Shown here: positions 21,118 through 64,000 of the stretch, in pieces
How positions within the stretch are numbered: the stretch's first letter is position 1
Layout: each line of letters begins with the position of its first letter
DNA from: Escherichia phage PNJ1902
DNA: 64,000 bases
Strand: one strand, 5' to 3'
Sequence record: OK254197.1
Notes under the pieces: generated by a model
Databases searched by the model: none
What the model was told of the DNA's origin: nothing
The model's input: only the letters and a program-made list of their open reading frames with translations
Program-made: the position numbers and the translations under genes

Positions 21118-21151
21118 ATTTTATTAACTGTAACTAAAACAAAGGAAATAT

Positions 21152-22099: not shown

Positions 22100-22124
22100 T
22101 AGTTACACGTAATCTTCGAACTAA

Positions 22125-22155
22125 GCCCGCGTTTTCTCCGAGAGCGCGGGCTTTT
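22125..22155 (+). terminator. Rho-independent terminator
   Basis: agcccgcg...cgcgggct + TTTT. Confidence 0.55.
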
Positions 22156-22183
22156 CTGTATTTAAGGCAAAAGAAAAAGCCCC

Positions 22184-22208
22184 TAAGTCTTTCGACTAGG
22201 GGCTTTAC
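22184..22208. terminator. Bidirectional terminator hairpin
   Basis: aaaaagcccctaagtctttcgactaggggcttt; A/T runs on both sides. Confidence 0.5.
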
Positions 22209-22219
22209 TGTTTGGTTCT

Positions 22220-22414
22220 TTAGAACCATATACTCTTGTTACAGCAACCACCCATACGGGAGGCCAATCTTGACTGAAAATCTACTCTAGGGGGCAGGAT
22301 AAGAGTAGGCTTAAAGGCAAACGGATTGAACGCCGGTATTTGCGTAAACATTGCTGGAGAGCAACAACGTGCTACAGGCATTGGGCAGCACGAAACAGAT
22401 TTTCTGCAACACAT
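22220..22414 (-). CDS. Hypothetical Cys-rich small protein
   Basis: ORF track; AGGAGG RBS 5 nt upstream of ATG on minus strand; 10 Cys in 64 aa. Confidence 0.4.
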   Translation of the reverse strand: MCCRKSVSCCPMPVARCCSPAMFTQIPAFNPFAFKPTLILPPRVDFQSRLASRMGGCCNKSIWF

Positions 22415-22423
22415 AATTCCTCC

Positions 22424-22840
22424 TTAGGAGTTATTACCACCATTTTGAGCTTTTGCAACTTGGCTTTGGCAGAAGCTATTAAACTTACCCATAAGTGATA
22501 CAAGCTGCTTCCCATCCTCTGTCTTTGCGAAGTCTTCGAAAAGGGCTAGTACTGCCTGTCCTTCCGCAGAAACCTGCGGTTGTTGGGTTTGTTGCTGAAC
22601 TTGCTGCTGCGGCATCTGTTGCTGCATTTGTTGGGGCATTTGCGACTGCCCGCTCATTTGCTGCATCATTTGCATAGGACTCACACTTCCAGGGTTTTGC
22701 TGGAGTTGTTGCTGCATCTGTTGCGCTTCTGCTAAACGCTGTTGCAATTGTTGTAAGTAGGGGTTATCCAGACCCGGAATGGGCTGCTGGGAGCCCATAC
22801 TTTGATTAAGTCCGTTATTTACAAAACCATATTTACTCAT
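22424..22840 (-). CDS. Gln-rich low-complexity protein
   Basis: ORF track; long Q/M-rich repeats. Confidence 0.45.
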   Translation of the reverse strand: MSKYGFVNNGLNQSMGSQQPIPGLDNPYLQQLQQRLAEAQQMQQQLQQNPGSVSPMQMMQQMSGQSQMPQQMQQQMPQQQVQQQTQQPQVSAEGQAVLALFEDFAKTEDGKQLVSLMGKFNSFCQSQVAKAQNGGNNS

Positions 22841-22861
22841 AATGGGCTCCTCCCCTTAATA

Positions 22862-23848
22862 TTAAGCCGGCAGTTTAGCCTGCAGACCAGCCAGAGTCTG
22901 AGTGATAGCACCAAGACTTAAAGCGATTTGATTAATTACCTGACCGTTAGCACCACTACCCGCAGCGATTGCTTCACGTAGGCGACATGCGTCTAACTCG
23001 TCCTGGATACGTGCAGTAGTTACACCAGCGATCGCAGTCTGAAGTTCACAGCAACATTCAGCGATCTGACGTTCCAGAGAGTTCTGGTTAGCACACATCT
23101 GAGCCTGAACAGCGGCAAACTGGTTATTAGTTTGTAAAGTCTGCTGGAAAGCGATCTGTGCAGAATCAAACTTATCTTGTGCACGAGCTATCTGGTTAGC
23201 TGCGAAAGATTGATCAATCTGGCGAGAAAGATCGAACTGACCCTGAATAACGTTGCGAGTTTCCTGGCAGATCTGATTAGACAGATTAGCACCTGTACCA
23301 TAGATCGTAGTTAGTACAGACTGAGTATCACGGCTCTGGTTTTGGGATGTCTGGCTAAAACCATTGTTAACTGCGCTTAAAACAGCCCCAGTACCCTGGT
23401 TAGCTTCTGTACGAGTAGTGTTAATAGCTGCTAGAATACTAGCGGTATCTTGATTCTGAAGTACTGCATCAACTGCGCTACCATCACCAACTACACCACG
23501 TCCACCGAATCCACCGAAACCACCGAATCCGCCTGTTAATAGAGCACCGATTAGGATAGCTCCGAATAGTCCCATACCTTCACCACCGAAAGCACCTGCG
23601 TTTGCTGGGTAACCACCTAGTAGGCCAGGGAAGCCACTAGTGAATACGTTTACTGGTTCTTGCATTTTATGTTTTCCATGTTTATGACAATGTTCATCAT
23701 CGTCATCTTCTTCATCATCATGTTCACGATGTTTTTCTTCGTAGGCTCTGACCTTCTCCCACTTTTTCTTATCTGATTCCTCGTGACGGTGCAGTTCTGC
23801 TGCAACGCTAGCGACGGTCTCAGGACTCTTAGCTACTTCTTCTGTCAT
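22862..23848 (-). CDS. Hypothetical protein with His/acidic N-terminus, Gly-rich hydrophobic segment and Q/N-rich coiled-coil region
   Basis: ORF track; upstream divergent promoter-like TTGACA-17-TAAAGT on minus strand. Confidence 0.5.
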   Translation of the reverse strand: MTEEVAKSPETVASVAAELHRHEESDKKKWEKVRAYEEKHREHDDEEDDDDEHCHKHGKHKMQEPVNVFTSGFPGLLGGYPANAGAFGGEGMGLFGAILIGALLTGGFGGFGGFGGRGVVGDGSAVDAVLQNQDTASILAAINTTRTEANQGTGAVLSAVNNGFSQTSQNQSRDTQSVLTTIYGTGANLSNQICQETRNVIQGQFDLSRQIDQSFAANQIARAQDKFDSAQIAFQQTLQTNNQFAAVQAQMCANQNSLERQIAECCCELQTAIAGVTTARIQDELDACRLREAIAAGSGANGQVINQIALSLGAITQTLAGLQAKLPA

Positions 23849-24055
23849 TTTTTAACACCTCCTAGTATATAGAAAATGTGTGTCTCTTTGATCACTCATC
23901 CATAACATATACTTTACACTACCCCAACAAAAATGTCAAGGGGTCTTTAAAAATTGCCCCCGGATTTTTAGTGGGGTCACAAATTTTGGTCCTCACCACT
24001 TATCTGCTACCCTTAAGTGCCCTATGATTTTCCTCTAAAAAGTTAAAAATTTTGA

Positions 24056-24084
24056 TTGCTTGAATGCTAAATTCTCTGTATAAT
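24056..24084 (+). promoter_or_regulatory. sigma70-type early promoter (TTGCTT-17-TATAAT)
   Basis: Read from sequence. Confidence 0.55.
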
Positions 24085-24114
24085 ATATCTATAAATTTGA
24101 GAGAGGAATAAGAT

Positions 24115-24633
24115 ATGAATGTTGATGAGCTAACACAGCACCTCTTATCTAGAGGATTTGATACAGATAAATATCATTGCTGGTTAAGCCCGGAAGGGTG
24201 GCTAACAGTCCCATTGTATGACTTCTCTGGGATGTTGCGGGGCTATCAGACGTATAATCCTTCTGCTCCAAAAGGGCATGGTAAGTGCCCCTTTGAGGCT
24301 AAATATTTTACCTACTCCACTACACAGTGTGTATGGGGACTAGAAACTCTCAATGGAGATGAAAAAGTAGTATTGATTGCTGAATCTGTATTTAAGGCAG
24401 TTGCATTACATAATGCTGGTTATCCAGCCCTAGCAATGTTGGGTTCTACCCCAGGAAAAGCGTTATTAAAGCAACTGAAATTACTACCTTTTAAATTGGT
24501 AGCTGTCGGGGATAATGATCCTGCGGGTGAAAAATTTGCTAGAAAATTGAACGGCTTTGTTTCTCCTGTAGATGTGGATGAGATGTCTACCGAAAACTTG
24601 AAAAATTTTCTTGCTATGAAGCTAAATTTCTAA
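24115..24633 (+). CDS. Toprim-domain protein (primase-like), putative
   Basis: VVLIAESVFKAVAL (Toprim Glu) and AVGDNDPAGEKFA (DxD) motifs. Confidence 0.45.
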   Translation: MNVDELTQHLLSRGFDTDKYHCWLSPEGWLTVPLYDFSGMLRGYQTYNPSAPKGHGKCPFEAKYFTYSTTQCVWGLETLNGDEKVVLIAESVFKAVALHNAGYPALAMLGSTPGKALLKQLKLLPFKLVAVGDNDPAGEKFARKLNGFVSPVDVDEMSTENLKNFLAMKLNF

Positions 24634-24654
24634 TATAATATATCTTATAAATTC

Positions 24655-24743
24655 GGAAGAATAGCATAACGGTATTGCAGCAGATTGCTAATCTGTCGGT
24701 TTGAAATATAGCCTTGTGGGTTCGATTCCCACTTCTTCCGCCA
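24655..24743 (+). tRNA. tRNA-Ser (anticodon GCU), class II
   Basis: Acceptor ggaagaa/ttcttcc, T-arm gtggg-ttcgatt-cccac, anticodon loop ttgctaa, long variable arm, encoded CCA. Confidence 0.65.
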
Positions 24744-24749
24744 GATTTT

Positions 24750-24827
24750 GGTTCTCAAGCTCATATGGTATGAGCACCCGGCTCATAACCGGAAGGTACG
24801 TAGGTTCGAATCCTCGGGGAGCCACCA
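24750..24827 (+). tRNA. tRNA with CAU anticodon (Met or Ile2)
   Basis: Acceptor ggttctc/gggagcc, D-arm gctc...gagc, anticodon loop ctcataa; T-stem partly mismatched. Confidence 0.5.
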
Positions 24828-24845
24828 ATTAAATAGAGGTCACAA

Positions 24846-25034
24846 ATGGATCTATATATAGTTTATGTTGTGTTTATTCAAGATAGAGAATACCCGGATG
24901 AATATAAAAAAGGATATAGGCTAGCCAGAGCTACCTCTGAAGCCCAAGCTATGGATAAAGTGGCAGATTATATGATTACGGTAGAAAACGTACACTATAT
25001 AGACTACCTCGAAGCCTCAAAAGTAATTGACTAA
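24846..25034 (+). CDS. Hypothetical small protein
   Basis: ORF track. Confidence 0.4.
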   Translation: MDLYIVYVVFIQDREYPDEYKKGYRLARATSEAQAMDKVADYMITVENVHYIDYLEASKVID

Positions 25035-25043
25035 GGAGACTAT

Positions 25044-25229
25044 ATGTCCAAGTTTCAAGAACTCAAGCAAGAGCTAGAAGAATGTGCCTGCCCTGAGTGT
25101 AGGGGAATTGGTGAAAGTTCTGATGCAGAAGCAGGAGATACTTTTTGCAATATCTGGGTTTGCCCAAATTGCAGTGGTACAGGTATTAATCCTAACTGTG
25201 GTATTTCCCTAGATATTGAACGAGGATAA
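25044..25229 (+). CDS. Small zinc-ribbon protein (CPECRG...CPNCSG)
   Basis: ORF track; two CxxC pairs. Confidence 0.4.
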   Translation: MSKFQELKQELEECACPECRGIGESSDAEAGDTFCNIWVCPNCSGTGINPNCGISLDIERG

Positions 25230-25330
25230 TACCTATGAAACTAAAAGATTATTATATTGGTTGGTTTGTGGGACTAGTAGTAGGATTTTCACTAGGCTAT
25301 AATATGTATCAACTAATAAACTGATTACAC

Positions 25331-25407
25331 GGGGGTGTAATCGAATTGGCATAGGTACTGGACTTAAAATTCAGGTTTTGTGGGTTCGAATCCCACCACC
25401 CCTACCA
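25331..25407 (+). tRNA. tRNA (anticodon tentatively UAA, Leu-like)
   Basis: Acceptor gggggtg/cacccct, T-arm gtggg-ttcgaat-cccac, CCA encoded; D-arm non-canonical. Confidence 0.45.
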
Positions 25408-25582
25408 AATTAAGGAAATAAGATGTATAGACATCCACCTCCGCCAACACGTCGTTCTAGGGAAGTTATCCTCATGGAATTGACTAAAAACTTCAAGGCA
25501 ACTCTTGAAGACAGAGATCTAGGCACGGATGAAGACATTGATTTTATTTGTAGACTATTAAAGATGAAACTGGAGAAAAAAC

Positions 25583-25789
25583 ATGGCTAATCCTGAAATT
25601 ACAGCACAACGTTTCATGCTTAAAGGCATGATTGCTGAGGCAGGTATAACTCAAGAGGTTGCAGATTTTCATAAGCAATTTCTTGACATTATAACTCTAG
25701 CTAAAGAGACTGGAGAAAAAGAGCATGGAGCGGCAATTATGGCTATATCTCTTATTAGTCTAGACTTGGCTGAAGAATCTGGAATTTAG
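25583..25789 (+). CDS. Hypothetical small protein
   Basis: ORF track. Confidence 0.4.
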   Translation: MANPEITAQRFMLKGMIAEAGITQEVADFHKQFLDIITLAKETGEKEHGAAIMAISLISLDLAEESGI

Positions 25790-25819
25790 CTCCTCCAAAC
25801 AGAATTTTTAAAAATGTAC

Positions 25820-25849
25820 TTGCCTTTTGCTTTAAATTTCTGATATAAT
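25820..25849 (+). promoter_or_regulatory. sigma70-type promoter (TTGCCT-18-TATAAT)
   Basis: Read from sequence. Confidence 0.45.
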
Positions 25850-25879
25850 AGTTATATAAATTGATGAAGGAGTTAATGA

Positions 25880-26155
25880 ATGCAAAATCGTGTTATAGCA
25901 GCTGGTATTGAAAGTGCAATCTGTAAATCCTGGGAAGGCTGGGAAGGTGAGATTGAATGGCTTTATTTCTACGATGTAGAACTTCTGCCGGAAATTAAAG
26001 CTAAATGTATTGAAGCTGGCATGGCTCCAGATGCAAAAGCTGATATTGATATTTCAATGTCTGAACTTAAAGGTCGTGTAATTACTGTTAGTGATGAGGG
26101 CGAAGAAGTTTTCGAACTTCCGTTCTCCTTAACTGTCGCTCCTAAGTTCGACTAA
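25880..26155 (+). CDS. Hypothetical protein
   Basis: ORF track; GAAGGAG RBS. Confidence 0.5.
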   Translation: MQNRVIAAGIESAICKSWEGWEGEIEWLYFYDVELLPEIKAKCIEAGMAPDAKADIDISMSELKGRVITVSDEGEEVFELPFSLTVAPKFD

Positions 26156-26191
26156 CTAATACAGCACTGAGCAAGTTCTTTAAAATTTGAC

Positions 26192-26220
26192 TTGCTCAGT
26201 GCCTTAAAACTTGGTATAAT
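26192..26220 (+). promoter_or_regulatory. sigma70-type promoter (TTGCTC-17-TATAAT) upstream of tRNA block
   Basis: Read from sequence. Confidence 0.5.
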
Positions 26221-26286
26221 AGTTATCTAATTTGGAAACATATTTAAAAGTGTTTAAATTAGAATTTTTTTGAATACTTCTAAATA

Positions 26287-26374
26287 TGGGGAAATATTCT
26301 GTAAGTGGTAGCAGAGCTGACTGTAAATCAGTTGTCATTGCGACTCGGGTGGTTCGACTCCATCTTTCCCCACC
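26287..26374 (+). tRNA. tRNA-Tyr (anticodon GUA), class II
   Basis: Acceptor ggggaaa/tttcccc, anticodon loop ctgtaaa, T-arm ggtgg-ttcgact-ccatc, CCA. Confidence 0.65.
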
Positions 26375-26380
26375 AATTTA

Positions 26381-26457
26381 AGTCCTGTTAGACAAACTGG
26401 TAAAGTCACTACCCTTTCAAGGTAGGATTTGCGGGTTCGATCCCCGCACAGGACGCC
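26381..26457 (+). tRNA. tRNA-Glu (anticodon UUC)
   Basis: Acceptor gtcctgt/acaggac, anticodon stem ctacc/ggtag, loop ctttcaa, T-arm gcggg-ttcgatc-cccgc, CCA. Confidence 0.65.
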
Positions 26458-26465
26458 AATTCCTG

Positions 26466-26542
26466 CATTCCTAGAGTGTTACTGGACAGCATGTCGGTCT
26501 CCAAAACCGTACGGTCTAGGTTCGAGTCCTAGTAGGTTTGCC
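26466..26542 (+). tRNA. tRNA-Trp-like (anticodon CCA), acceptor stem imperfect
   Basis: Anticodon arm cggt-ctccaaa-accg, T-arm ctagg-ttcgagt-cctag; 5' boundary uncertain. Confidence 0.4.
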
Positions 26543-26548
26543 AAAATT

Positions 26549-26623
26549 TGCACCTTTAGCTGAGATGGATTAGCGCTTGCCTGAAGAGCTTGAGAGGTTC
26601 GTTCGATACGAACAGGGTGCACC
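26549..26623 (+). tRNA. tRNA (anticodon not resolved)
   Basis: Acceptor gcacctt/agggtgc with CCA, T-arm gttcg-ttcgata-cgaac. Confidence 0.45.
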
Positions 26624-26641
26624 AATTTGAAGGAGCTGCTT

Positions 26642-26914
26642 ATGCATCCTGAAAACTTCTTTATTTACTGCGCGGATAAGTCGCTGAAACGTAGAATTAA
26701 CAAAGTCTATCATTATCGTGCTAGTCAACAGCCTTATGTATACGCTTTTGACGGTGATCACATTCCATTAGAACAATTATCTTGTGATTACATGATATTG
26801 AAGAACTTTGACGAGACAAAGATCTCAAGCGTTCACAATCGACAGAATCCATTAACGTGGAAATATAAGAAGAAAAAGAAAGGCATCAAATTCTTAAAAA
26901 ATGTAGTTGCTTAG
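26642..26914 (+). CDS. Hypothetical protein
   Basis: ATG 26642 after GAAGGAG; in-frame part of track ORF 26627..26914. Confidence 0.45.
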   Translation: MHPENFFIYCADKSLKRRINKVYHYRASQQPYVYAFDGDHIPLEQLSCDYMILKNFDETKISSVHNRQNPLTWKYKKKKKGIKFLKNVVA

Positions 26915-26935
26915 TTTCCAAAAGTTCTGTATAAT
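26907..26935 (+). promoter_or_regulatory. sigma70-type promoter (TTGCTT-17-TATAAT)
   Basis: Read from sequence. Confidence 0.55.
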
Positions 26936-26983
26936 AATTACATAAATTGAACTGGAGAAGCAACATGATAGAATAAGATAAAT

Positions 26984-27059
26984 CGACCGTTGGCTGAATG
27001 GCTTAGGCGAAGGATTGCAAATCCTTTTTATGTGAGTTCAAATCTCATGCGGTCGTCCA
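26984..27059 (+). tRNA. tRNA-Cys (anticodon GCA)
   Basis: Acceptor cgaccgt/gcggtcg, anticodon stem aagga/tcctt, loop ttgcaaa, T-arm gtgag-ttcaaat-ctcat, CCA. Confidence 0.65.
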
Positions 27060-27061
27060 AT

Positions 27062-27201
27062 TTGCTGAAAGAATTGTTTTAACAATTCAGGCACGCGTAG
27101 GAACACTGTCTCCGTAATTGAAAGATGAGGCACGGTTTGGAGAGGTATGCCGCTACACGCTACGGTGCTAACTCCGTCTAGGTGAAAATCCTAGTCAGCA
27201 A
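27062..27201 (+). ncRNA. Long tRNA-like element (about 140 nt) closed by a perfect 7-bp terminal helix
   Basis: ttgctga...tcagcaa closure; internal T-arm-like ctagg-tgaaaat-cctag. Confidence 0.3.
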
Positions 27202-27211
27202 TATAAATTTA

Positions 27212-27294
27212 GGGTCGTTAGCCAAGCGGTTTGGCGGTGGACTGTTAATCCATGTCGAAAGACAACGTAGGTTCGAATCCTACACGGCCCGCCA
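27212..27294 (+). tRNA. tRNA-Asn-like (anticodon GUU) with unusually long variable arm
   Basis: Acceptor gggtcgt/acggccc, D-stem gcca/tggc, anticodon loop ctgttaa, hairpinned 13-nt variable arm, CCA. Confidence 0.55.
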
Positions 27295-27396
27295 AATTCT
27301 GTGTAGAGTTAAGTAAACCGGTAGCCAACCAGCTATCATTGCTGACATCGAATTCAGCCACAGATACCATTTTCATTAATAACTGAGGAAACAAGC

Positions 27397-27582
27397 ATGT
27401 CCAAGAATGTAATTGCGCAGCTAGAAGTTCATCGTGATAGCACTATCAACAATATTGAAGTTGAGAAGAAATACATCGAAGAACTTAAACATGATATACT
27501 AGTAAGTCTTAATCGTCTTAATGTACGAAAAGAGTTTCTTAAGGAACTTAATGCAGCTATTGAAAAACTCAAAGCTGAGTAA
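27397..27582 (+). CDS. Hypothetical small protein
   Basis: ORF track; GAGGAAACAAGCATG. Confidence 0.45.
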   Translation: MSKNVIAQLEVHRDSTINNIEVEKKYIEELKHDILVSLNRLNVRKEFLKELNAAIEKLKAE

Positions 27583-27591
27583 ATGAATTAT

Positions 27592-27668
27592 GCGACAGGG
27601 GCTGGCTTGGTAATGGTACTCCCCTGTCACGGGAGAGAATGTGGGTTCGAATCCCATCGGTCGCGCCA
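27592..27668 (+). tRNA. tRNA-Asp (anticodon GUC)
   Basis: Anticodon stem ctccc/gggag, loop ctgtcac, T-arm gtggg-ttcgaat-cccat, CCA. Confidence 0.65.
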
Positions 27669-27694
27669 AATTAAACTAGCACGAGAAATATGCT

Positions 27695-28042
27695 ATGATT
27701 AATGCTAAAGAAGAGTTGTTACTTGCCCTAAAGAATACTAATTCTGAAGTTAAGTGTATTAAGATAGAATTCGGTTATTATGGAGACAAAGAAGTTTGGG
27801 TATTGCCCGTAGGTTATACAGAAAAAGATATTGAAGATTTTCTAAATAATCTAGACTTTAAATATGACTCGGGTTTCGGTGGACAATTGCTTTATGGTAA
27901 CGTATGGTTTACTGATGGAACTTGGTTAGAACGTGGTGAATATGATGGTTCTGAATGGTGGGAGTATAAGACTACACCAGCAATCCCTGAGGAATGCCGA
28001 ACAATTAATGGTGAAGTAGATAATACTTTACGGTTAAACTAA
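27695..28042 (+). CDS. Hypothetical protein
   Basis: ORF track. Confidence 0.5.
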   Translation: MINAKEELLLALKNTNSEVKCIKIEFGYYGDKEVWVLPVGYTEKDIEDFLNNLDFKYDSGFGGQLLYGNVWFTDGTWLERGEYDGSEWWEYKTTPAIPEECRTINGEVDNTLRLN

Positions 28043-28046
28043 TAAA

Positions 28047-28157
28047 ATTTCAGTGCAGAACACGGAGCTAGCAATTCGGAAGTGCTGACTCATGATAAGC
28101 TGCCTATGTACTTGCGAAGCGGTCGTGTCCAAGACTCGGACTCTTGCACTGAAAACA
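28047..28157 (+). ncRNA. Candidate structured RNA closed by 10-bp terminal helix
   Basis: tttcagtgca...tgcactgaaa complementarity; no ORF. Confidence 0.25.
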
Positions 28158-28165
28158 ATCAAACA

Positions 28166-28287
28166 TTCTAGCGTGGTTGATGGGGAAACCAGCTTGGCTA
28201 GGGCAGAAGCTCGTTCGATTCGAGTGAAAGAATGGTTCTCGTAAGTCCGCACAAGTGATAACAGGTTCGAGTCCTGTCTAGAATGAC
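28166..28287 (+). ncRNA. Long tRNA-like element (about 120 nt)
   Basis: 7-bp closure attctag/ctagaat, D-arm-like tggt...acca, T-arm acagg-ttcgagt-cctgt with about 60-nt insertion. Confidence 0.3.
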
Positions 28288-28434
28288 ACTATAAAGTTTA
28301 CTTATTATGTAGGTTCCGATAGATCGGCGGGTCTATTCTGGCATTTAAGAGAGGTCTCGCAAACTTCTTTGTCAGCCGTGGGGTTGGTAGCCTCCAGGTG
28401 GCCTACACAATAAGTAAATTTATTAAAAATTCAT

Positions 28435-28463
28435 TTGCTATTCTGCTTAATTCTCTGTATAAT
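28435..28463 (+). promoter_or_regulatory. sigma70-type early promoter (TTGCTA-17-TATAAT)
   Basis: Read from sequence. Confidence 0.55.
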
Positions 28464-28496
28464 ATATTTTATAAAGTGAAGAGAAGGAAAGCAAAA

Positions 28497-28655
28497 TGAA
28501 ACACAAGATAGCTCAAGTTTTTATGGCATTATGGTGTATGCCAGTAGCTATAACAGCATTTAATCTAGATACTTTTACTATAGAAGAAAAATGTATCGGG
28601 TTAGTTAGCGGCTTTAGTATGCTGGGCTTATCCTTGTTGTGGTTGAAGAAATAAT
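28497..28655 (+). CDS. Hypothetical 52-aa membrane protein
   Basis: ATG after GAAGGAAAG RBS downstream of promoter; hydrophobic. Confidence 0.35.
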
Positions 28656-28658
28656 ATT

Positions 28659-28736
28659 CTCCGTGTAGCTCAGTTTGGCCAGAGCGTTTCGTTTGGGGCG
28701 ATAGGGTCGGGGGTTCAAATCCTCCCACGGAGACCA
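28659..28736 (+). tRNA. tRNA-Pro (anticodon UGG)
   Basis: D-arm gctc...gagc, anticodon loop tttgggg, T-arm ggggg-ttcaaat-cctcc, CCA. Confidence 0.65.
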
Positions 28737-28742
28737 AACAAT

Positions 28743-28820
28743 TGCGGGTTAGATCTCTGGTAGAGATCGCTAGTCTCATAAGCTAGAAAGAGGTAGGTTC
28801 GATTCCTGCACCCGCTTCCA
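28743..28820 (+). tRNA. tRNA with CAU anticodon (Met/Ile2), 1-72 mismatch
   Basis: D-arm gatc...gatc, anticodon stem ctagt/gctag, loop ctcataa, T-arm gtagg-ttcgatt-cctgc. Confidence 0.55.
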
Positions 28821-28840
28821 TTTTAATAGAGGATTTCGAA

Positions 28841-29001
28841 ATGAAAGTATTTCGATTAGTAGTAAGTGACAAACGTTTAGGTAAGAATACATCAAAATCC
28901 TTAATCGCTCATTACGGTAAAAATTGGGATGAAGTAATGGCAGAGTTTAATACTAATCACCCTTACTTGAAAGTTCACTCTATTAAAGAAGTATACAATG
29001 G
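28841..29001 (+). CDS. Hypothetical 52-aa protein
   Basis: ATG 28841 after GAGGA; below ORF-track cutoff. Confidence 0.3.
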
Positions 29002-29009
29002 TTACTAAT

Positions 29010-29088
29010 AGATCGCTAGCTCAATAGGTTTAGTAGCATCCGACTTTTAATCGGAAGGTTCTGGGTTCGAGTCCCAGGCGATCTACCA
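29010..29088 (+). tRNA. tRNA-Lys (anticodon UUU)
   Basis: Acceptor agatcgc/gcgatct, anticodon stem tccga/tcgga, loop cttttaa, T-arm ctggg-ttcgagt-cccag, CCA. Confidence 0.7.
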
Positions 29089-29107
29089 ATTTCAAGAAAA
29101 ACGCAGT

Positions 29108-29135
29108 TGCTTGATGCTTAATTTCTTGTTATAAT
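29108..29135 (+). promoter_or_regulatory. sigma70-type promoter (TTGCTT-16-TATAAT)
   Basis: Read from sequence. Confidence 0.5.
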
Positions 29136-29182
29136 ATTTATATAAATTGATGAGGAGAGATCCTCATCATAGTTCACTAAGG

Positions 29183-29350
29183 TATTAGCTCGACCTAGGA
29201 CTGGCTGCCAAAAAGCACGATCCCTTCTACTTGGGAGAAGTTCTAGATTAGTCCACTAGATTCAGCGGCAACTGAATAGTGTATCGGGTTTGCGAGATGA
29301 CGCAGTTCCTTCCGCTCGAAGCGAAGGTGCTGTAGTTACGCCGAGCTAAT
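29183..29350 (+). ncRNA. Candidate structured RNA closed by 9-bp terminal helix
   Basis: attagctcg...cgagctaat complementarity; multiple internal hairpins; no ORF. Confidence 0.25.
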
Positions 29351-29373
29351 AGCCTTAGTAAACTAAAGATTTT

Positions 29374-29448
29374 GGGCGGTTAGTTTATCTGGGAAAATAC
29401 CTGACTTGCACTCAGGAGTGAGGAGTTCGACTCTCCTACTGTCCACCA
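29374..29448 (+). tRNA. tRNA-Ala (anticodon UGC)
   Basis: Anticodon stem cctga/tcagg, loop cttgcac, T-arm aggag-ttcgact-ctcct, CCA. Confidence 0.65.
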
Positions 29449-29466
29449 AATTAAAGGGTATGTAGT

Positions 29467-29967
29467 ATGAAGGTAGCTAAAAATGGGAGAAAAGATAACT
29501 TAAATGAGTTAGAAATATTCCTCCACAATAACAAACTAGACGTAACCGCTAGTAATTACATGCAAATAGCTCTATGGTATAATGGGTATATAGTTAGGAA
29601 GGCCAATCCTAGTAAGGATAAGAAGTCAAATACATACCAAAAGAGACTAGAGCATAGCTATCAAAGATCCCTAAGAGTAGTACAGCTTTATTGTTATATC
29701 AATAATATAAATAATAAGCTGGGATATATTTATATAATATCTAATCCAGCTTTTCCAGGCTGGTTTAAAGTAGGAGCAGCCAAAGATGCTGAGACTAGAT
29801 TAAATACCTATCAAACATACTCCCCTTTTCGGGACTATGTATTAGAGTATTATAAACTAGTAGATAATTATGAACTCAAAGAAAAAGAAATCCTAAGTTC
29901 TTTTTCATCTAGAAATAATGAGTGGGTTCATGCTCCACTTGAAGAAATAATTGCTTGCGTGGCGTAA
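29467..29967 (+). CDS. GIY-YIG / T5orf172-type nuclease-domain protein (homing-endonuclease-like)
   Basis: GYIYIISNPAFPGWFKVGAAKD...R...Y..Y...E motif; 3' end overlaps tRNA-Leu by about 15 nt. Confidence 0.5.
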   Translation: MKVAKNGRKDNLNELEIFLHNNKLDVTASNYMQIALWYNGYIVRKANPSKDKKSNTYQKRLEHSYQRSLRVVQLYCYINNINNKLGYIYIISNPAFPGWFKVGAAKDAETRLNTYQTYSPFRDYVLEYYKLVDNYELKEKEILSSFSSRNNEWVHAPLEEIIACVA

Positions 29968-30035
29968 TTGGTAGACGCGCGATCCTTAGGAGTTCGTGTT
30001 AATTCGTGTGGGTTCGAGTCCCTCCGCAAGCACCA
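29953..30035 (+). tRNA. tRNA-Leu (anticodon UAG), class II
   Basis: Acceptor gcttgcg/cgcaagc, D-loop aattggtagac, anticodon loop cttagga, long variable arm, CCA. Confidence 0.65.
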
Positions 30036-30039
30036 AATT

Positions 30040-30112
30040 TGATGGTCAGAGTAAATTAAACCTACTATCTCGGTTGAGCTGTTTTAATGGGTTCGAATCC
30101 CAGCGAGGCGTA
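30040..30112 (+). tRNA. Possible degenerate tRNA or pseudo-tRNA
   Basis: T-arm-like tggg-ttcgaat-ccca but no complementary acceptor strand found. Confidence 0.2.
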
Positions 30113-30147
30113 ACTGCCTGGTGTGATAGGGGCATCATCTTATTATT

Positions 30148-30238
30148 GGAAGAGCAAATCGAATTGGCGACGAAAACCGCTTGGAAAGTGGCTGACTGGT
30201 AAAACGGCTTGAGAGTTCAAATCTCTCCTCTTCCGCCA
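30148..30238 (+). tRNA. tRNA-Ser (anticodon GGA), class II
   Basis: Acceptor ggaagag/ctcttcc, anticodon loop ttggaaa, T-arm gagag-ttcaaat-ctctc, CCA. Confidence 0.65.
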
Positions 30239-30250
30239 AACAATTTATAT

Positions 30251-30345
30251 GGTAGGTCAATCCAACGGCTGGCGCTGGACTCCGACTTGAAATCGGTTGA
30301 TCGTAGTGATACGGTGTAAGGGTTCGATCCCCTTACCTACCTCCA
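30251..30345 (+). tRNA. tRNA-Ser (anticodon UGA), class II
   Basis: Acceptor ggtaggt/acctacc, anticodon loop cttgaaa, T-arm aaggg-ttcgatc-ccctt, CCA. Confidence 0.6.
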
Positions 30346-30350
30346 AATCT

Positions 30351-30482
30351 TGAAGTATGCCGGAATTGGTAGACGGGGCTGCCTAAAAGGTTTATAGAGA
30401 ACATCCACTCTCTACAACATACCTCATAAAGCGGCTGAGATAAATGGTCTATCTCGTGAAGGTTCAAGTCCTTCTGCTTCTT
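30351..30482 (+). ncRNA. Long tRNA-like element with Leu-type D-arm and canonical T-arm, about 55-nt insertion
   Basis: D-loop aattggtagac, T-arm gaagg-ttcaagt-ccttc, acceptor-like pairing of ends. Confidence 0.3.
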
Positions 30483-30711
30483 GATACATCTATGGCTCAA
30501 AGTGTAACGGTGCTATTTGATGCTCTTAGTAAGACTTCCCCGACATGCGTTCGGGAGTAAGCTGCTAAGGCTAGGGTAGAAGAGTTTCGGAGAGCCGCCA
30601 CAATTGAAAATTCGTACTCGTCTTGAGCTGCGTGCAATAGGAGATAACTTGATTAGTATTCTAGAACATGCTAATTGAGGAAGGTTTCGCTAACCCTGCG
30701 AGTTTTCAATT

Positions 30712-30788
30712 GTGGCTATATCATAATTGGTTAATGATCCTGATTGTGAATCAGGCCTATGTGGATTCGAATTCCACTAGCCACCCCA
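30712..30788 (+). tRNA. tRNA-His (anticodon GUG)
   Basis: Acceptor gtggcta/tagccac, anticodon stem cctga/tcagg, loop ttgtgaa, T-arm gtgga-ttcgaat-tccac, CCA. Confidence 0.7.
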
Positions 30789-30813
30789 AATTAACTTAAA
30801 TAGGAAATAAAAT

Positions 30814-31008
30814 ATGGCTGATTTCTGCAAACAATGCTCCATTGATATGTGGGGCAGAGATACTGGTGATCTTTCTGGTTTGATTACAGAAGCTGAAGTT
30901 AAAGAAGGCTACGGTGCTGTTGTGATTTGCGAGGGATGCGGAGTTATTCGAGTAGATCATGAAGGCAAACGTTTGGAAGAATCTGAGCCAACAACAATTT
31001 TTCCGTAG
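30814..31008 (+). CDS. Small Cys-rich (zinc-binding-like) protein
   Basis: ORF track; CKQC...CEGC. Confidence 0.45.
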   Translation: MADFCKQCSIDMWGRDTGDLSGLITEAEVKEGYGAVVICEGCGVIRVDHEGKRLEESEPTTIFP

Positions 31009-31020
31009 AATAAAAATTAT

Positions 31021-31096
31021 TGGGATGTAGATCAATTGGCAGATCGTCGGCCTCTGACTCCGAAGGTTCCACGTTCGATCCGTGGCATCCCAGCCA
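31021..31096 (+). tRNA. tRNA-Gln (anticodon CUG)
   Basis: Acceptor tgggatg/catccca, loop ctctgac, T-arm ccacg-ttcgatc-cgtgg, CCA. Confidence 0.6.
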
Positions 31097-31102
31097 AATA
31101 AT

Positions 31103-31178
31103 TGGAGAGTAGTGTAACGGTTAGCACAACGGCCTTTGACTCCGTTAATGGTAGGTTCGATTCCTCCTTCTCCAGCCA
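31103..31178 (+). tRNA. tRNA-Gln (anticodon UUG)
   Basis: Acceptor tggagag/ttctcca, D-arm gtgt...caca, loop ctttgac, CCA. Confidence 0.55.
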
Positions 31179-31186
31179 AACAATAA

Positions 31187-31262
31187 GCGGTTAAGCACAC
31201 GGGTTGTGCCGCAGGCCTTCCAAGCCTCGCTGAGTAGGGTTCGATTCCCTCTAGCCGCTCCA
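31187..31262 (+). tRNA. tRNA-Gly (anticodon UCC)
   Basis: Acceptor gcggtta/tagccgc, loop cttccaa, T-arm taggg-ttcgatt-ccctc, CCA. Confidence 0.55.
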
Positions 31263-31278
31263 ACTTTAAGGAAACGTT

Positions 31279-31533
31279 ATGCACGTTTTTGAATTTCGTA
31301 ATAAAAGTACCGATAAACGAGTTATTGTTATTGGGGAAACATACCGAGCATACGAACAAACTGACGGCTCTGTTATCCTGAATGATGAGAAAGGAGGTTT
31401 TAGCTTTTATCCAGAAGAACCTTATGAAGAGTTTCGAAAACAATTTAACCTAGACTGGAGAAAGCATTTAAACACTGTTGCTTCATCTGTAATACTGCCA
31501 ACTACCAGTACTGAGTCCTCTAATGGCCGATAA
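31279..31533 (+). CDS. Hypothetical protein
   Basis: ORF track. Confidence 0.5.
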   Translation: MHVFEFRNKSTDKRVIVIGETYRAYEQTDGSVILNDEKGGFSFYPEEPYEEFRKQFNLDWRKHLNTVASSVILPTTSTESSNGR

Positions 31534-31687
31534 CCTAAAAGTAAAGATCGATAAACAAAAGAAACGTGTAGAAGTAGAGATTGGTGAAGAACGTGTAGCC
31601 TTCACCTTTGAATTTCTACAACAAATGGCAATGACAGTTATGACTGACAAGTCTCCTATTATTGAAAAAGAAATCCCGTTGGAATAA
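31523..31687 (+). CDS. Hypothetical 54-aa protein
   Basis: ATG overlapping previous stop; below ORF-track cutoff. Confidence 0.3.
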   Translation: MADNLKVKIDKQKKRVEVEIGEERVAFTFEFLQQMAMTVMTDKSPIIEKEIPLE

Positions 31688-31695
31688 CGGGTTCT

Positions 31696-31782
31696 GCTGG
31701 GTTGGCAGAATGGTTGAATGCACCTGATTTGTAATCAGGAGGAGTAATCCCGTTGCAGGTTCGAATCCTGTGCCCAGCACCA
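31696..31782 (+). tRNA. tRNA-Thr-like (anticodon UGU) with long hairpinned variable arm
   Basis: Acceptor gctgggt/gcccagc, anticodon stem cctga/tcagg, loop tttgtaa, T-arm gcagg-ttcgaat-cctgt, CCA. Confidence 0.55.
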
Positions 31783-31797
31783 ATTTAAGGATTAGTA

Positions 31798-31964
31798 TGT
31801 TTAAACTCCTAGTAGTTATCTGGTATAGCCAATCAAACAGAGCTAATACCTCTCACGTTATAGACTTTAATACTAAAAATGAAGCTGAAGAAGCATATGC
31901 TAATTTAATACAACGTAATAAAGAATCTCGTAGTATAGTTTATGAAGTGACTAAACTTTATTAA
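31798..31964 (+). CDS. Hypothetical 55-aa protein
   Basis: ATG 31798 after AAGGA; track ORF 31770 start would overlap tRNA. Confidence 0.35.
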
Positions 31965-31973
31965 AAATTCATT

Positions 31974-32001
31974 TGCCTTCTCTCTTATTTCTTGTTATAA
32001 T
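31974..32001 (+). promoter_or_regulatory. sigma70-type promoter (TTGCCT-16-TATAAT)
   Basis: Read from sequence. Confidence 0.5.
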
Positions 32002-32031
32002 ATTTATATAAATTAATGAGAGGGAAACCAA

Positions 32032-32325
32032 ATGAAACGTTATCTTTCTGTTATGTTCCAAACTGGTGGTCAACGCTATACTTATGAATTTCCTAGCTCT
32101 TGGAAGATCAAAGAAGGTGATCAAGTAGTAGTGTTAACACCGCGCGAGGGTTTCAAGGTAGTAACGGTTAAGCAAGTATTTCCAAAAGATCGTGAACCAG
32201 CTAAAGGCATTCGCTATAAGATGATTCATGGTGTAGTTCGTCAAGTACCACGAGCGGAAGTCGAAATCAAAGTAGATAAAGATGGTAAACTTAAATATAC
32301 CTCTTGCTTAGACGAGTTGCTATAA
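32032..32325 (+). CDS. Hypothetical protein
   Basis: ORF track; GAGGGAAACCAAATG. Confidence 0.5.
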   Translation: MKRYLSVMFQTGGQRYTYEFPSSWKIKEGDQVVVLTPREGFKVVTVKQVFPKDREPAKGIRYKMIHGVVRQVPRAEVEIKVDKDGKLKYTSCLDELL

Positions 32326-32531
32326 TGAGAATTACTTTCACAGAAAAGATTATGGGTAATGGTGTTATGATCATTACCGCATGGGATGGTAATCAGTGGT
32401 GTAGTGTTTCAGGTATTAAGCCTGAAGAACAAACACTAGAAAATATCTCAAAGATTAAGCGAAGAATGGCAGAACGTGCACGACTTCCAGGTGCGCCTAG
32501 AAATGGTAAACGTTCTGCAATTAAATATTAA
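32325..32531 (+). CDS. Hypothetical protein
   Basis: ATG 32325 overlapping previous stop. Confidence 0.4.
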   Translation: MRITFTEKIMGNGVMIITAWDGNQWCSVSGIKPEEQTLENISKIKRRMAERARLPGAPRNGKRSAIKY

Positions 32532-32532
32532 T

Positions 32533-32609
32533 GCTTCGGTAGCTTAGCGATCTAAAGCACTCGGCTGATAACCGAGAGATCGGGGGTTTAAATCCCTCCC
32601 GGAGTACCA
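32533..32609 (+). tRNA. tRNA-Ile (anticodon GAU)
   Basis: D-arm gctt...aagc, anticodon stem ctcgg/ccgag, loop ctgataa, T-arm ggggg-tttaaat-ccctc, CCA. Confidence 0.65.
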
Positions 32610-32705
32610 AATTTAGGAATTAAGACTATGCGTCCAGGAAAGTTTAAAAAAGCTAATTGGTCTAAAGAGTATAAAGAATACTTACTTAGTCTAGTAAAAC
32701 ATAAC

Positions 32706-32781
32706 AGTTAGTTGGCAGAGTGGTTATGCACCTCCTTCATACGGAGCGACTACAGTGGTTCAAATCCACTACTAACTACCA
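32706..32781 (+). tRNA. tRNA with CAU anticodon (Met/fMet/Ile2)
   Basis: Acceptor agttagt/actaact, loop ttcatac, T-arm agtgg-ttcaaat-ccact, CCA. Confidence 0.6.
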
Positions 32782-60021: not shown

Positions 60022-60558
60022 TTAACTGTTTAACTGAACAACATCTGGTATATTCCCTTTGAATGCCTCTTGTACTGCAAAGCTGCCATGAAATTTCTTT
60101 CTTAGTAAATTCGCATAATTTACTGCGTCTTCCAATCTGTCATAGGAAAAATACTTAGTAGTACCTTTTATAAGTCCATGCTTATCATGTAACCTTACCA
60201 TCCATTTCTGGAGTCCCTTATGCCACGTAACATTTAGGTAGCCTGAGGATGTTTTTGAGGTTCTACCATTATGATTATTTTCCGTAATTGTAGCTTCTCG
60301 CAGATTTGACCACCTATTATTTAGCTTATTTCTATCTATATGGTCTACACATTCCCCCGGCCACCTATTTTCCATAATAACAAAAGCTACTTGATGTGCA
60401 TAAGCTTTAAATCCTCGATACTTAAGCTGCCTATACCCCCTATTTAAAGTACCTGCTTCTTTATCCTTACGATTGCCACTTTTCCAGGTGAAAACTCCAG
60501 TTTCGGGATTATAAGCAAATGCTTCTTGTATATCCTGTATACTTAAATTATTCTTCAT
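60022..60558 (-). CDS. HNH homing endonuclease
   Basis: VDHIDRNKLNNRWSNLREAT..EN motif. Confidence 0.65.
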   Translation of the reverse strand: MKNNLSIQDIQEAFAYNPETGVFTWKSGNRKDKEAGTLNRGYRQLKYRGFKAYAHQVAFVIMENRWPGECVDHIDRNKLNNRWSNLREATITENNHNGRTSKTSSGYLNVTWHKGLQKWMVRLHDKHGLIKGTTKYFSYDRLEDAVNYANLLRKKFHGSFAVQEAFKGNIPDVVQLNS

Positions 60559-60772
60559 CGCTCACCTTTGTCCGAAATCTCTTCCGCGACGCCCGAGATC
60601 CATCCGACCATTCCCTCTCAAACTCCGCACGTTTCTCGTCAAACTTCCGCTCCCTTTCCGCAATCTCCCGCGACACTCCCGCAATATATTTACGATGCTC
60701 GTTGATTGCCGCAGTCGTCCCGAAAACTCCCGCAAGTATCCCGATAATAAAAGCAATTATAATACTAAACAT
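60548..60772 (-). CDS. Small membrane protein
   Basis: ORF track; N-terminal TM. Confidence 0.4.
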   Translation of the reverse strand: MFSIIIAFIIGILAGVFGTTAAINEHRKYIAGVSREIAERERKFDEKRAEFEREWSDGSRASRKRFRTKVSDEE

Positions 60773-60959
60773 CTAATTCCCTCTCAATTTGCAGAATACG
60801 GGTGCTATCACAACGTTGCAGTAGTACTAGCTTTTCTAGGATAACTTGTTGTTGTTTTACCTGAGCTTCTAGAGTTTTTAGGCGGAGATACACGATACGA
60901 GAGACAATGAGGATTACCCAGACTAATATTACTATTAGTGTAACTGCCACTTCCATCAT
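60765..60959 (-). CDS. Small membrane protein
   Basis: ORF track; N-terminal TM. Confidence 0.4.
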   Translation of the reverse strand: MMEVAVTLIVILVWVILIVSRIVYLRLKTLEAQVKQQQVILEKLVLLQRCDSTRILQIERELDV

Positions 60960-61368
60960 TTACGTTTCTCCGATAGTAAGGTTTCAATTCTAGCTAGATG
61001 ATTATCTAAAATACACTGCCCAATAATCACAATCCCCAGTAGTGTAATAATTACCCATTCCATTAAATCCACCCCGCCATAGCTGCCAACCAAAAACCTA
61101 CAAAAATAAAGAATAAGATAGTTCCGAACCCAAAACTATTTATCCAGCTATCATACACCTCTCCACGTCTGCTCTTTCTTTTATTTGACATATCTTTCAT
61201 GCTCCAATAAATATGGTATTTTAAAATATTTTATAGTTTGTGCATAACCAACCATGCTCGTGACTTCCTAGAAGGGCTTTTCACTTTCTTACATAGTGTT
61301 TTCTGCTAGTACACCATCCAAGAAATAAAAAATTTAGTTTACTTGGATGTCTTTTTGCTTTATACTAA

Positions 61369-61635
61369 TTACAGGTAGTTAGATTGCTCTAGTTTAAATT
61401 TACAATCACCATATTTAAGGTCAAACTGACTGAGATCCCACCATCCAAACTTAGTACGGAGCTGTACTACTGGAAAGCGATCTCCCTTAATACGAACTTT
61501 TTGAATCTTGAGACCGTAATGTTCTTCTCCCGCACCACCAAAAGATTTTACAAATCCAGTACAAAATGGTTTGGGAGCAGGTACACAACCAGATAACATA
61601 ACTGCGGCAACTAGTGCAATCACAAACTTTTTCAT
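61369..61635 (-). CDS. llp: Lipoprotein Llp-like (lytic-conversion / receptor-blocking lipoprotein), putative
   Basis: Signal peptide with lipobox LSGC; small; divergently adjacent to receptor-binding protein gene. Confidence 0.5.
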   Translation of the reverse strand: MKKFVIALVAAVMLSGCVPAPKPFCTGFVKSFGGAGEEHYGLKIQKVRIKGDRFPVVQLRTKFGWWDLSQFDLKYGDCKFKLEQSNYL

Positions 61636-61720
61636 ATTTATCTCTCCATTTCTAATTTATGAATCTATTATAGCAAAATAGAGGGATGAAAGCAAATACA
61701 TTTTTATAATAGGAGATTAT

Positions 61721-63508
61721 ATGGGGTTTTTCGCTGGAAAATATAGCGATGGTAAGACCGTACTATCTTTAAATACTGAATCTGGTGGTGACATTAATCG
61801 TCACTATAGTCCAAATGCCAATAGTATTTTTCATAGTGATATGCCATTTGTCCTAGTTGACGGTACTTATGAAGCTGGGTTAGGTAATGCCGGAAATGGG
61901 TTTTTTGTATGTCAGATGCCCTCTGACATAATAAATATTAAATCCAACGACCCAGGTAGAGTTATACTAACTGCTATTGAGATTAATGGTACTCATAGGG
62001 CTTTTCTTAATGGTACTCAGTCTCAAGTTGGTCAATTTACTGCATTTTTTGAAGATCCGCCTATTGGTAGGGCAGGTGCAGAAGTAGGTCTTACGTCAGC
62101 TTTTGCATCAGGTAATAGTTTAGCACATGGCACCTATATTTATAACTCTGGTTTAGGCCATGAAGAATCAATTGCTAGACAGGGTACAGGTGGTACCATA
62201 TCTCAAGCCTCCGGGTTTAATTTATATAGGCCTGGTGGTGCATATGCTGGTGAGGCTATTGGAAGGGCGTGGACTCTAGCAGGATTTCCAGCAGGAGCGT
62301 CTACAGTACCTATAGACGGTGGTAATGCTGACTACTGGCACCCTAATTGGCAAGCTCCTATAGGAGCCGCCTATAGAGGACATAATTGGTTCTACGTTTG
62401 TAACTCTAATATACGAGGTTACGTAGGTAAAAAGGGCACAGTACCAGCTAATGTTAACTTATTATACCAATCTCCTACGTACCCTGATAAGGTTTATATA
62501 TGTAAAGGTTCAACGTCTAATCTAGCAGCACAGGCCGCTAAGAAAGTGTATGTGCAGGATTGGTATAACATAACTCCTACTAAGGTTATTTGGTATGTAC
62601 TTAATCTAAGGTACTCTAATGGTAATATGGGCGTATCTGGTAATCCATTTACTGGGTCAGATATACTTATAACTCCATCTAATTTTACTATAAAAGGGGT
62701 TAGTTTACCAAATACTGGATATAAGTTTATTAACCAAAATGCTTTTGGTAACTTAGGTTATAGGCCAGATATGGAATACGTCGGAAATAACGCAGCGTAT
62801 ACTGGAGCCTTTGGAGATACCACTGCGCGTTGTGAAATTGTAGGATCTAGTAATGGATCTTTATGGTCTCCTGTAGATTATGGAGGAGCCAAGTCTCAAA
62901 TCAGTATTTACAAATTCGGAGCAGGTAAGCAATGGTACGTAAACTCAAATAATAACACTATTGGTAATGAGCATGGAGCTGTGTGGAGTCCTAGTACTGT
63001 ACCATTAAGACTATTTCCAAATAATGTTGCTAGCACCTACGTTGGTGATGACATAACCCCCGCATATCCTGGAGCAGGCAACTACTATAGAGCTTTGGCC
63101 ACCGTAGGATTAGGATTGCCTAACGCTAACGCAACGGTAATATTAACTACGGAAGTTATTATGGGTAATATTAATACGGCTGGAGGAGCCATACGCACAT
63201 ACGGTGGTACTGCTTGGCAAGTACAAGGAAGAAGGCAGCATAGTTACACGGAAGGTGATGGAATATTCCATCAAATATTAACCTTACCTCCTGGATACTT
63301 AGTCCCATATCACTCCACTACTGCATACAGTTATACTCAAACTTGGGCAAGTAGACCTGATGAGTTAACATTTAGAAGAAACGGATATATTTATACTATT
63401 AAAAATCTAGGAAATGGTAATGCTGAATTGGGCGTAATTATTCACGCTGATGAGGCTGCAGCTATTTTCCTACCGAGATTAAGAGTAACAGTTCAACGCC
63501 TTACCTAA
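61721..63508 (+). CDS. Receptor-binding tail protein (pb5/Oad-like), putative
   Basis: 595 aa Gly/Asn/Thr-rich protein divergent from the Llp-like gene; assignment by synteny and size. Confidence 0.45.
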
Positions 63509-63518
63509 AGGAGGAAAT

Positions 63519-64000
63519 ATGGCAAATGATGTATTAGTACCAGATCTTATGTCCCCTGAAGGGATGGATGTAATTGAAGCTTATTTACAGTGTGGCAGCG
63601 ATGTGCCTTCTGCCGCACGTAGTCTTGGAATGTCCGAAATTGCTTTTCGAGATATTATGAATCGTAGTGAAGTTAAGAACTACTTAAATGATATTTTTAT
63701 GGAAAGTGGTTTCCGTAATAGGGATCGTTTATTTGGTGTTCTAGATGAAGTTATTAAACGTAAACTAGAGGAACTAGAAGAAACTGGTATGGGTTCTGAC
63801 CAGGATATTATGGATATTCTCTGGAAAGCACACAAGATGAAGATGGAAGAGATGAAAATGATGGTAGAATTGGAGAAAGTGAAGGCAGCAGCCCGTACTC
63901 CAGCTAACCAGACCAACATCCAGAATAATATTATTGCTGGAGCTGGGGATCAAAACTACATGGATTTAATTACTTCCCTAGCTACTGGAGGTAAGAAGTA
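63519..64000 (+). CDS. Hypothetical HTH-containing protein (possibly terminase-small-subunit-like), 3' end beyond window
   Basis: ATG 63519 after AGGAGG; open to window end. Confidence 0.3.

Follow-up and report, generated by a model that had tools for sequence, protein, structure and literature searches.

Two neighbouring genes of Escherichia phage PNJ1902, lying in the window analysed here (64,000 nucleotides of one strand of sequence record OK254197.1), point apart across an 85-bp gap (61636-61720) and encode a small lipoprotein (Llp) and a 595-aa protein regarded as the receptor-binding protein (RBP). The question raised by this locus is whether the pair forms the host-recognition module known in phage T5 as llp/oad, as a first-pass annotation made from the sequence alone had proposed, and which outer-membrane receptor the two proteins address. 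The pair is a T5-type llp/oad host-recognition module, already known from published phages, and we regard it as very probable that it constitutes a matched, BtuB-specific module for host recognition and lytic conversion. For this reading, family membership, near-identity to studied proteins, the lipoprotein signal, synteny, and promoter conservation were computed here, whereas BtuB dependence and exclusion activity come from the literature on near-identical proteins. The divergent arrangement of the first-pass annotation was recovered, with both open reading frames (ORFs) placed on opposite strands (Table 1).

Membership of the RBP in the pb5/Hrs family of receptor-binding tail-tip proteins is established at the sequence level. 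The PHROGs profile phrog_4815 ("receptor binding tail protein") matches residues 1-595 (E 1.5e-282), and a phmmer search of PDB returned the pb5 chains 8B14_B and 8A8C_B of the pb5-FhuA complexes (E 5e-48) in two stretches, 1-199 and 280-595. No Pfam model matched the protein, and its identification came through PHROGs, PDB, and BLAST instead. The alignment with pb5, Hrs, and their relatives that had been put forward as a check thus yielded clear pb5-family similarity, both to the PDB chains and to BF23 Hrs. The protein had been described as rich in Gly, Asn, and Thr and as shorter than T5 pb5. Both descriptions hold: the leading residues are G (12.8%), A (9.2%), N (8.4%), T (7.7%), and S (6.7%), although Ala ranks second, and the length of 595 aa falls 45 aa short of the 640 aa of pb5.

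The identities of the RBP, obtained by tblastn over 537 phage records with H8 compared in addition, separate its relatives by receptor. The closest homologs were found in vB_SenS_S124 (99.3%) and SPC35 (99.0%, 595 aa), followed by BF23 Hrs (84%, 595 aa) and the RBPs of DT57C (65.6%) and phiR2-01 (58.9%); dependence on BtuB has been reported for SPC35, BF23, DT57C, and phiR2-01 (PMC8624392; PMC4728585; PMC10644984). Identity to pb5 of T5, for which FhuA is the reported receptor, is 30.6% over 100% of the query, that to the RBP of H8, with FepA as the reported receptor, is 28%, and the T5-like phages of Klebsiella also reach approximately 28% (tblastn). By sequence, the RBP clusters with those of the BtuB-dependent phages, the FhuA type (T5) and the FepA type (H8) being equally remote. 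Its specificity is most likely that for BtuB, judging from this clustering; BtuB is targeted by the vast majority of Markadamsvirinae, and FhuA or FepA by few (PMC8594841). The suggestion that receptor specificity may differ from that of T5 is borne out to the extent that the RBP groups with the BF23/SPC35 clade, the tested members of which use BtuB and not FhuA. The top match, vB_SenS_S124, was considered as a possible synonym of the FepA-using "S124" of the BASEL paper, and this was ruled out: it is a different phage, isolated from chicken excrement in China, and the RBP of the FepA type (H8) is just 28% identical.

Six substitutions (Y218H, W281G, V354I, N410S, R457T, and V462I) distinguish the RBP from that of SPC35. 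In a codon comparison, the same two genes differ synonymously at 84 positions and non-synonymously at 6, a sign of strong purifying selection on the RBP. This ratio, along with the hundreds of phage records that contain homologs of the llp and RBP genes, identifies the two ORFs as real genes rather than chance reading frames. Relative to T5 pb5, identity peaks within the first 50 residues (50%) and is minimal around residues 101-150 and 251-300 (22-24%), a profile that fits a conserved attachment end combined with a diverged region that would contact the receptor. The exact sequences of both proteins are present at NCBI under the title "hypothetical protein" of Escherichia phage PNJ1902 (UIS66023.1 for the RBP and UIS65923.1 for Llp). 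These two accessions are numbered 100 apart despite the adjacency of the genes, and functional names for the module are apparently absent from the public PNJ1902 record.

The second product of the locus had been proposed to be a small lipoprotein with the lipobox LSGC, and this was confirmed by two signatures. The Pfam model LPAM_1 (lipoprotein lipid attachment site) scores 22.8 at a cut-off of 20, and the N-terminus (MKKFVIALVAAVMLSGC) satisfies the PROSITE PS51257-type pattern, with two Lys among residues 1-7, a 10-residue hydrophobic core (mean Kyte-Doolittle value 3.1), the L-S-G-C box, Cys17, and Val at position +2. The same pattern is satisfied in all 12 of the 12 family members considered. 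The predicted mature protein has 72 aa. The residue at +2 decides lipoprotein sorting under the Lol rule of E. coli, Val rather than Asp directing the protein to the outer membrane. Llp is therefore predicted to be sorted to the outer membrane, as its +2 residue is Val and not Asp.

Beyond the lipobox model LPAM_1, Pfam shows no family for Llp. Its assignment to the BF23-type Llp family is nevertheless definite on sequence grounds, given identities of 99% to the SPC35 protein, 98% to BF23 Llp (86/88 residues), and 97% to DT57C Llp. The BF23 protein is reported to block BtuB (PMC4728585). When llp of DT57C, the product of which is one residue off that of BF23, was expressed, BF23 and DT57C plated more than 100-fold less, and T5 was unaffected (PMC4728585). 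The family is small and tight, comprising 11 clusters with 58-97% identity among 5.8 billion proteins searched. The family alignment (12 members, identity at least 58%) has 25 invariant columns, and Cys25, Cys78, and the lipobox are present throughout. Besides the family's own cluster, a profile search across 1.84 billion representative proteins returned two proteins, P0012 (a repeat protein of 541 aa) and P0013 (an 86-aa lipoprotein). The match to the repeat protein was rejected as spurious. The 86-aa lipoprotein (MKAIMVATVLLLAGC...) was matched with E 6e-4 and an HHalign probability of 96% over 78 columns, retains both cysteines, and is the sole relative of BF23-type Llps found beyond their own 50% cluster among these representatives; judging from its sequence, it may serve a more distant phage as a receptor blocker.

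The intergenic region, which contains the llp promoter and the ribosome-binding sites of both genes, is 100% identical to that of SPC35 and 96.5% identical to that of BF23. A sigma-70 consensus scan of this region reported no promoter and no terminator; the llp promoter was missed because its -35 hexamer matches the consensus at just three of six positions, below the threshold, and its position was taken from the elements annotated in BF23, to which the region was aligned. The TATAAT and TTGCTT hexamers are invariant even in T5, where they are annotated as a putative early promoter. The llp promoter core and the RBP ribosome-binding site are kept relative to T5, with the flanking coding DNA too diverged to align.

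In terms of gene content, the closest known counterpart of the locus is the module of SPC35 (RBP YP_004306626, lipoprotein YP_004306627), which shares the length of the RBP, the intergenic sequence, and the gene order, and differs by the six RBP substitutions, one substitution in Llp (V18A), and a nucleotide divergence of approximately 5% in the RBP gene, nearly all of it synonymous. The Hrs/Llp pair of BF23 (DQ097178; Mondigler et al. 2006) is the prototype of the BtuB-type module, and the -10 and -35 elements are kept between the two phages. The pb5 (oad)/Llp pair of T5, for which structures are available (8B14 and 8A8C for pb5-FhuA; 8A60 and 7QJF for Llp), is alike in architecture, orientation, neighbors, and the llp promoter core, and its RBP is homologous over the full length; it is unlike in its FhuA target, in the greater length and the 30.6% identity of pb5, and in the mature domain of Llp, which lacks detectable similarity and for which a similarity of fold is suggestive at most. 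The proposal of a T5-type llp/oad module is thus upheld by a pb5 homolog over the full length and by a lipoprotein that occupies the llp position and orientation, has promoter elements kept even in comparison with T5, and is 98% identical to BF23 Llp.

The two genes demonstrate different degrees of conservation. At the nucleotide level, llp, together with the intergenic region, is 97% identical to its counterparts in both BF23 and DT57C, whereas the RBP gene is 78.6% identical to that of BF23 and 67.2% to that of DT57C; such a sharp drop points to a recombination boundary between llp and the RBP gene. Mosaicism of this kind was already described for DT57C (PMC4728585). In PNJ1902, both halves of the module are matched, each being of the BtuB type. 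Different combinations have been reported for phage Cit2, with a T5-type (FhuA) RBP and an Llp clustering with those of the BtuB type, and for S124, with a FepA RBP and an Llp grouping with that of DT57C (PMC12980165). These two combinations would represent mismatched modules.

According to the mechanism that we propose for the module, the RBP, situated at the tip of the central straight tail fiber, would bind irreversibly to BtuB, the TonB-dependent transporter of vitamin B12, as judged from near-identical proteins (PMC4728585, PMC10644984), and this binding would trigger the opening of the tail and the ejection of DNA. The llp gene would be transcribed early from the divergent sigma-70-type promoter, and its product would be exported, lipidated at Cys17, and sorted by the Lol system to the inner leaflet of the outer membrane. 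There, Llp would inactivate BtuB as a phage receptor, preventing superinfection and the waste of progeny on receptors in cell debris (PMC4728585, PMC10644984). By analogy with T5 Llp, which binds FhuA from the periplasmic side so that the extracellular loops fold across the site used by the RBP (PMC9586334), Llp might act on the periplasmic face of BtuB and close the RBP site allosterically. This last step is the weakest one, since Llp and T5 Llp lack sequence homology.

Several points weigh against this reading as a whole. The receptor specificity is derived from identity to studied proteins, and, for SPC35, the BtuB dependence is cited from a secondary source (PMC8624392). The RBP also differs from that of SPC35 at six residues. 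The periplasmic, allosteric mode of action is extrapolated from T5 Llp, a protein with no detectable similarity in the mature domain. HHalign comparison of the family alignments of BF23-type and T5-type Llps gives a probability of 92% with signal peptides and 0.4% without them, and 33 of 100 column shuffles of the mature domains score as high or higher.

The term "Llp-like" used in the first-pass annotation is therefore appropriate in part: it holds for position, architecture, and function, and it does not hold for the mature domain, which is that of a BF23-type Llp. In position and function, Llp is equivalent to T5 Llp. As to sequence, homology between the two mature domains was rejected as unsupported, as the HHalign probability of 92% and a BLASTP match (E 4e-4) rest on the signal peptide. 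A phmmer search with Llp against PDB, which holds the T5 Llp chains 8A60_B and 7QJF_A, did not find T5 Llp at E-values up to 10 and gave chance matches only (E > 0.3). The profile phrog_1119 ("Cor superinfection exclusion protein") is matched over the full length by Llp (E 4e-26), BF23 Llp (2e-26), and T5 Llp (1e-19), but this is a mixed profile, and the Llp match derives at least partly from the signal peptide. The Cor lipoproteins of T1/phi80-like phages, to which the label of the profile refers, resemble Llp in being small lipoproteins of the outer membrane and in excluding phages whose receptor is a TonB-dependent transporter, and differ in having been described for FhuA-using phages (PMC9586334).

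An alternative that keeps appreciable weight, while being unlikely, is that Llp blocks BtuB in a manner different from that of T5 Llp, e.g., by direct occlusion at the cell surface or by interference with BtuB assembly, in which case the BF23-type and T5-type Llps would be analogs and not homologs. It agrees with the lack of sequence similarity between the mature domains and with the literature, where the two types are stated to be non-homologous (PMC4728585; PMC10644984), as well as with the outcome of the wider searches: Foldseek against PDB gave nothing significant for Llp, and the profile search of 1.84 billion representatives led only to the family's own cluster and one other small lipoprotein. 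Among predicted viral structures in BFVD, the best structural match is the receptor-blocking protein of phiR2-01 (E 9e-9, TM 0.79), with a protein of phage CEC_Kaz_2018 titled "super-infection exclusion protein" in second place (E 5e-3, TM about 0.45). The mature T5 protein (Q38162) belongs to the same lipoprotein class and has a similarly placed cysteine pair (Cys26/Cys73, compared with Cys25/Cys78 in Llp), which forms a disulphide in T5 Llp (PMC9586334). A common fold of Llp and T5 Llp is possible. The stronger proposal, namely that BF23-type and T5-type Llps are of one origin and have the same small beta-barrel fold and that Llp blocks BtuB as T5 Llp blocks FhuA, from the periplasmic face and with closure of the extracellular loops, is offered tentatively, and we consider its chances to be somewhat below even.

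Recognition by the RBP of an outer-membrane transporter other than BtuB (FhuA as in T5, FepA as in H8, or another one) appears highly improbable. The receptor was assigned from sequence, the pb5 family is known to have changed receptors (PMC8594841; PMC12980165), and the six substitutions relative to SPC35 leave some room for such a switch. Nevertheless, identity of the RBP is 30.6% with T5 pb5 and 28% with the H8 protein, compared with 59-99% for the RBPs of SPC35, BF23, DT57C, and phiR2-01, for which BtuB dependence has been reported; even at 59% identity, BtuB-using members retain this receptor; and the adjacent Llp is of the BtuB-blocking type at 97-98% identity. Equally improbable is a generic phage lipoprotein or moron that has no receptor-blocking role and adjoins the RBP gene by chance. 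In favor of that reading, Llp lacks a Pfam family beyond the lipobox and is titled "hypothetical protein" both in PNJ1902 and in several of its relatives. Against it, exclusion has been shown by experiment for proteins that match Llp at 97-98% identity, and the position and promoter of llp are strictly kept across T5-like phages.

The genomic setting of the matched BtuB-type module is that of a T5-like phage. Megablast searches with the locus and with the final 25 kb matched hundreds of T5-like phages (Demerecviridae, Markadamsvirinae, Tequintavirus), the top full-length nucleotide matches, each approximately 95-97% identical, being HMD-P5, GSP044, vB_SenS_S124, and SPC35; the window thus belongs to a Tequintavirus of the SPC35/BF23 type. 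The gene order A1, dmp, small membrane ORFs, llp, RBP, terS is the same as in T5, BF23, SPC35, and DT57C. The RBP gene lies between the divergent llp gene and the gene for the terminase small subunit, near the right terminal repeat, and in T5, SPC35, and DT57C terS/sciB also begins approximately 10 nt after the RBP gene. The Pfam scan gave no match for the terminase small subunit ORF of the window.

Downstream of llp, the four small overlapping ORFs are counterparts of T5 ORF148-151 and are annotated in DT57C as "putative membrane proteins"; in the Pfam scan they gave one sub-threshold match (LapA_dom) and nothing else. An HNH_3 homing-endonuclease ORF is placed between dmp and these small ORFs. 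It is missing at that position in T5, SPC35, and vB_SenS_S124 and was found in vB_Sen_H9, ECOP18, HildyBeyeler, and SHSML-45; this patchy distribution among relatives suggests a mobile insertion close to the boundary of the terminal repeat. The window also contains a tRNA cluster of the T5-like type.

Table 1. Features of the llp/RBP locus and of its surroundings in the window.
Feature	Coordinates	Strand	Evidence or remark
llp, 88-aa precursor, BF23-type receptor-blocking lipoprotein (lytic conversion / superinfection exclusion)	61369..61635	-	ORF list; BF23 Llp 98%, SPC35 99%, DT57C 97%; phrog_1119 E 4e-26; UIS65923.1
Lipoprotein signal peptide, aa 1-16, and Cys17 (predicted lipidated)	61585..61635	-	LPAM_1, PROSITE-type pattern
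Lipobox L-S-G-C	61585-61596	-	Cys is position 17
Divergent intergenic region, 85 bp; llp promoter and both ribosome-binding sites	61636..61720	.	Read and aligned
llp Shine-Dalgarno sequence GGAGAG, 6 nt ahead of ATG	61642..61647	-	Read from sequence
llp -10 hexamer TATAAT	61667..61672	-	Aligned to the -10 annotated in BF23 DQ097178; read directly
llp -35 hexamer TTGCTT, 17-nt spacer, 3/6 consensus	61690..61695	-	Aligned to the -35 annotated in BF23
RBP Shine-Dalgarno sequence AGGAG, 5 nt ahead of ATG	61711..61715	+	Read; kept in 5/5 phages aligned
Receptor-binding tail-tip protein (RBP), pb5/Hrs family, most likely BF23/SPC35 BtuB type, 595 aa	61721..63508	+	phrog_4815, PDB pb5 chains, tblastn; UIS66023.1
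Terminase small subunit (SciB) gene, start only, continues past window end	63519..64000	+	Synteny with T5, SPC35, DT57C
Four small overlapping ORFs (74, 64, 45, 45 aa) with hydrophobic segments, downstream of llp	60548-61200	-	ORF list
HNH_3 homing-endonuclease ORF, 178 aa	60022-60558	-	Pfam E 2e-12
tRNA cluster, 21 genes, T5-like type	21043-32781	+	Includes two tRNA-Met, two tRNA-Gln, two tRNA-Leu

The module, its receptor, the exclusion function, and the llp/RBP mosaicism have all been published before, and both proteins are approximately 99% identical to known ones. The value of the analysis is in annotation, as two "hypothetical protein" genes of PNJ1902 can be named as an RBP (BtuB type) and an Llp (BF23 type). 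The assignment leads to the prediction that btuB mutants would be resistant to PNJ1902 and that combining the phage with other BtuB-dependent T5-like phages in a cocktail would be redundant. Llps of the BtuB type may share the fold and the periplasmic, allosteric mechanism solved for T5 Llp with FhuA. If they do share a fold and an origin, the allosteric shutdown of a receptor by a lipoprotein would be a single ancient solution that has been retargeted between TonB-dependent transporters.

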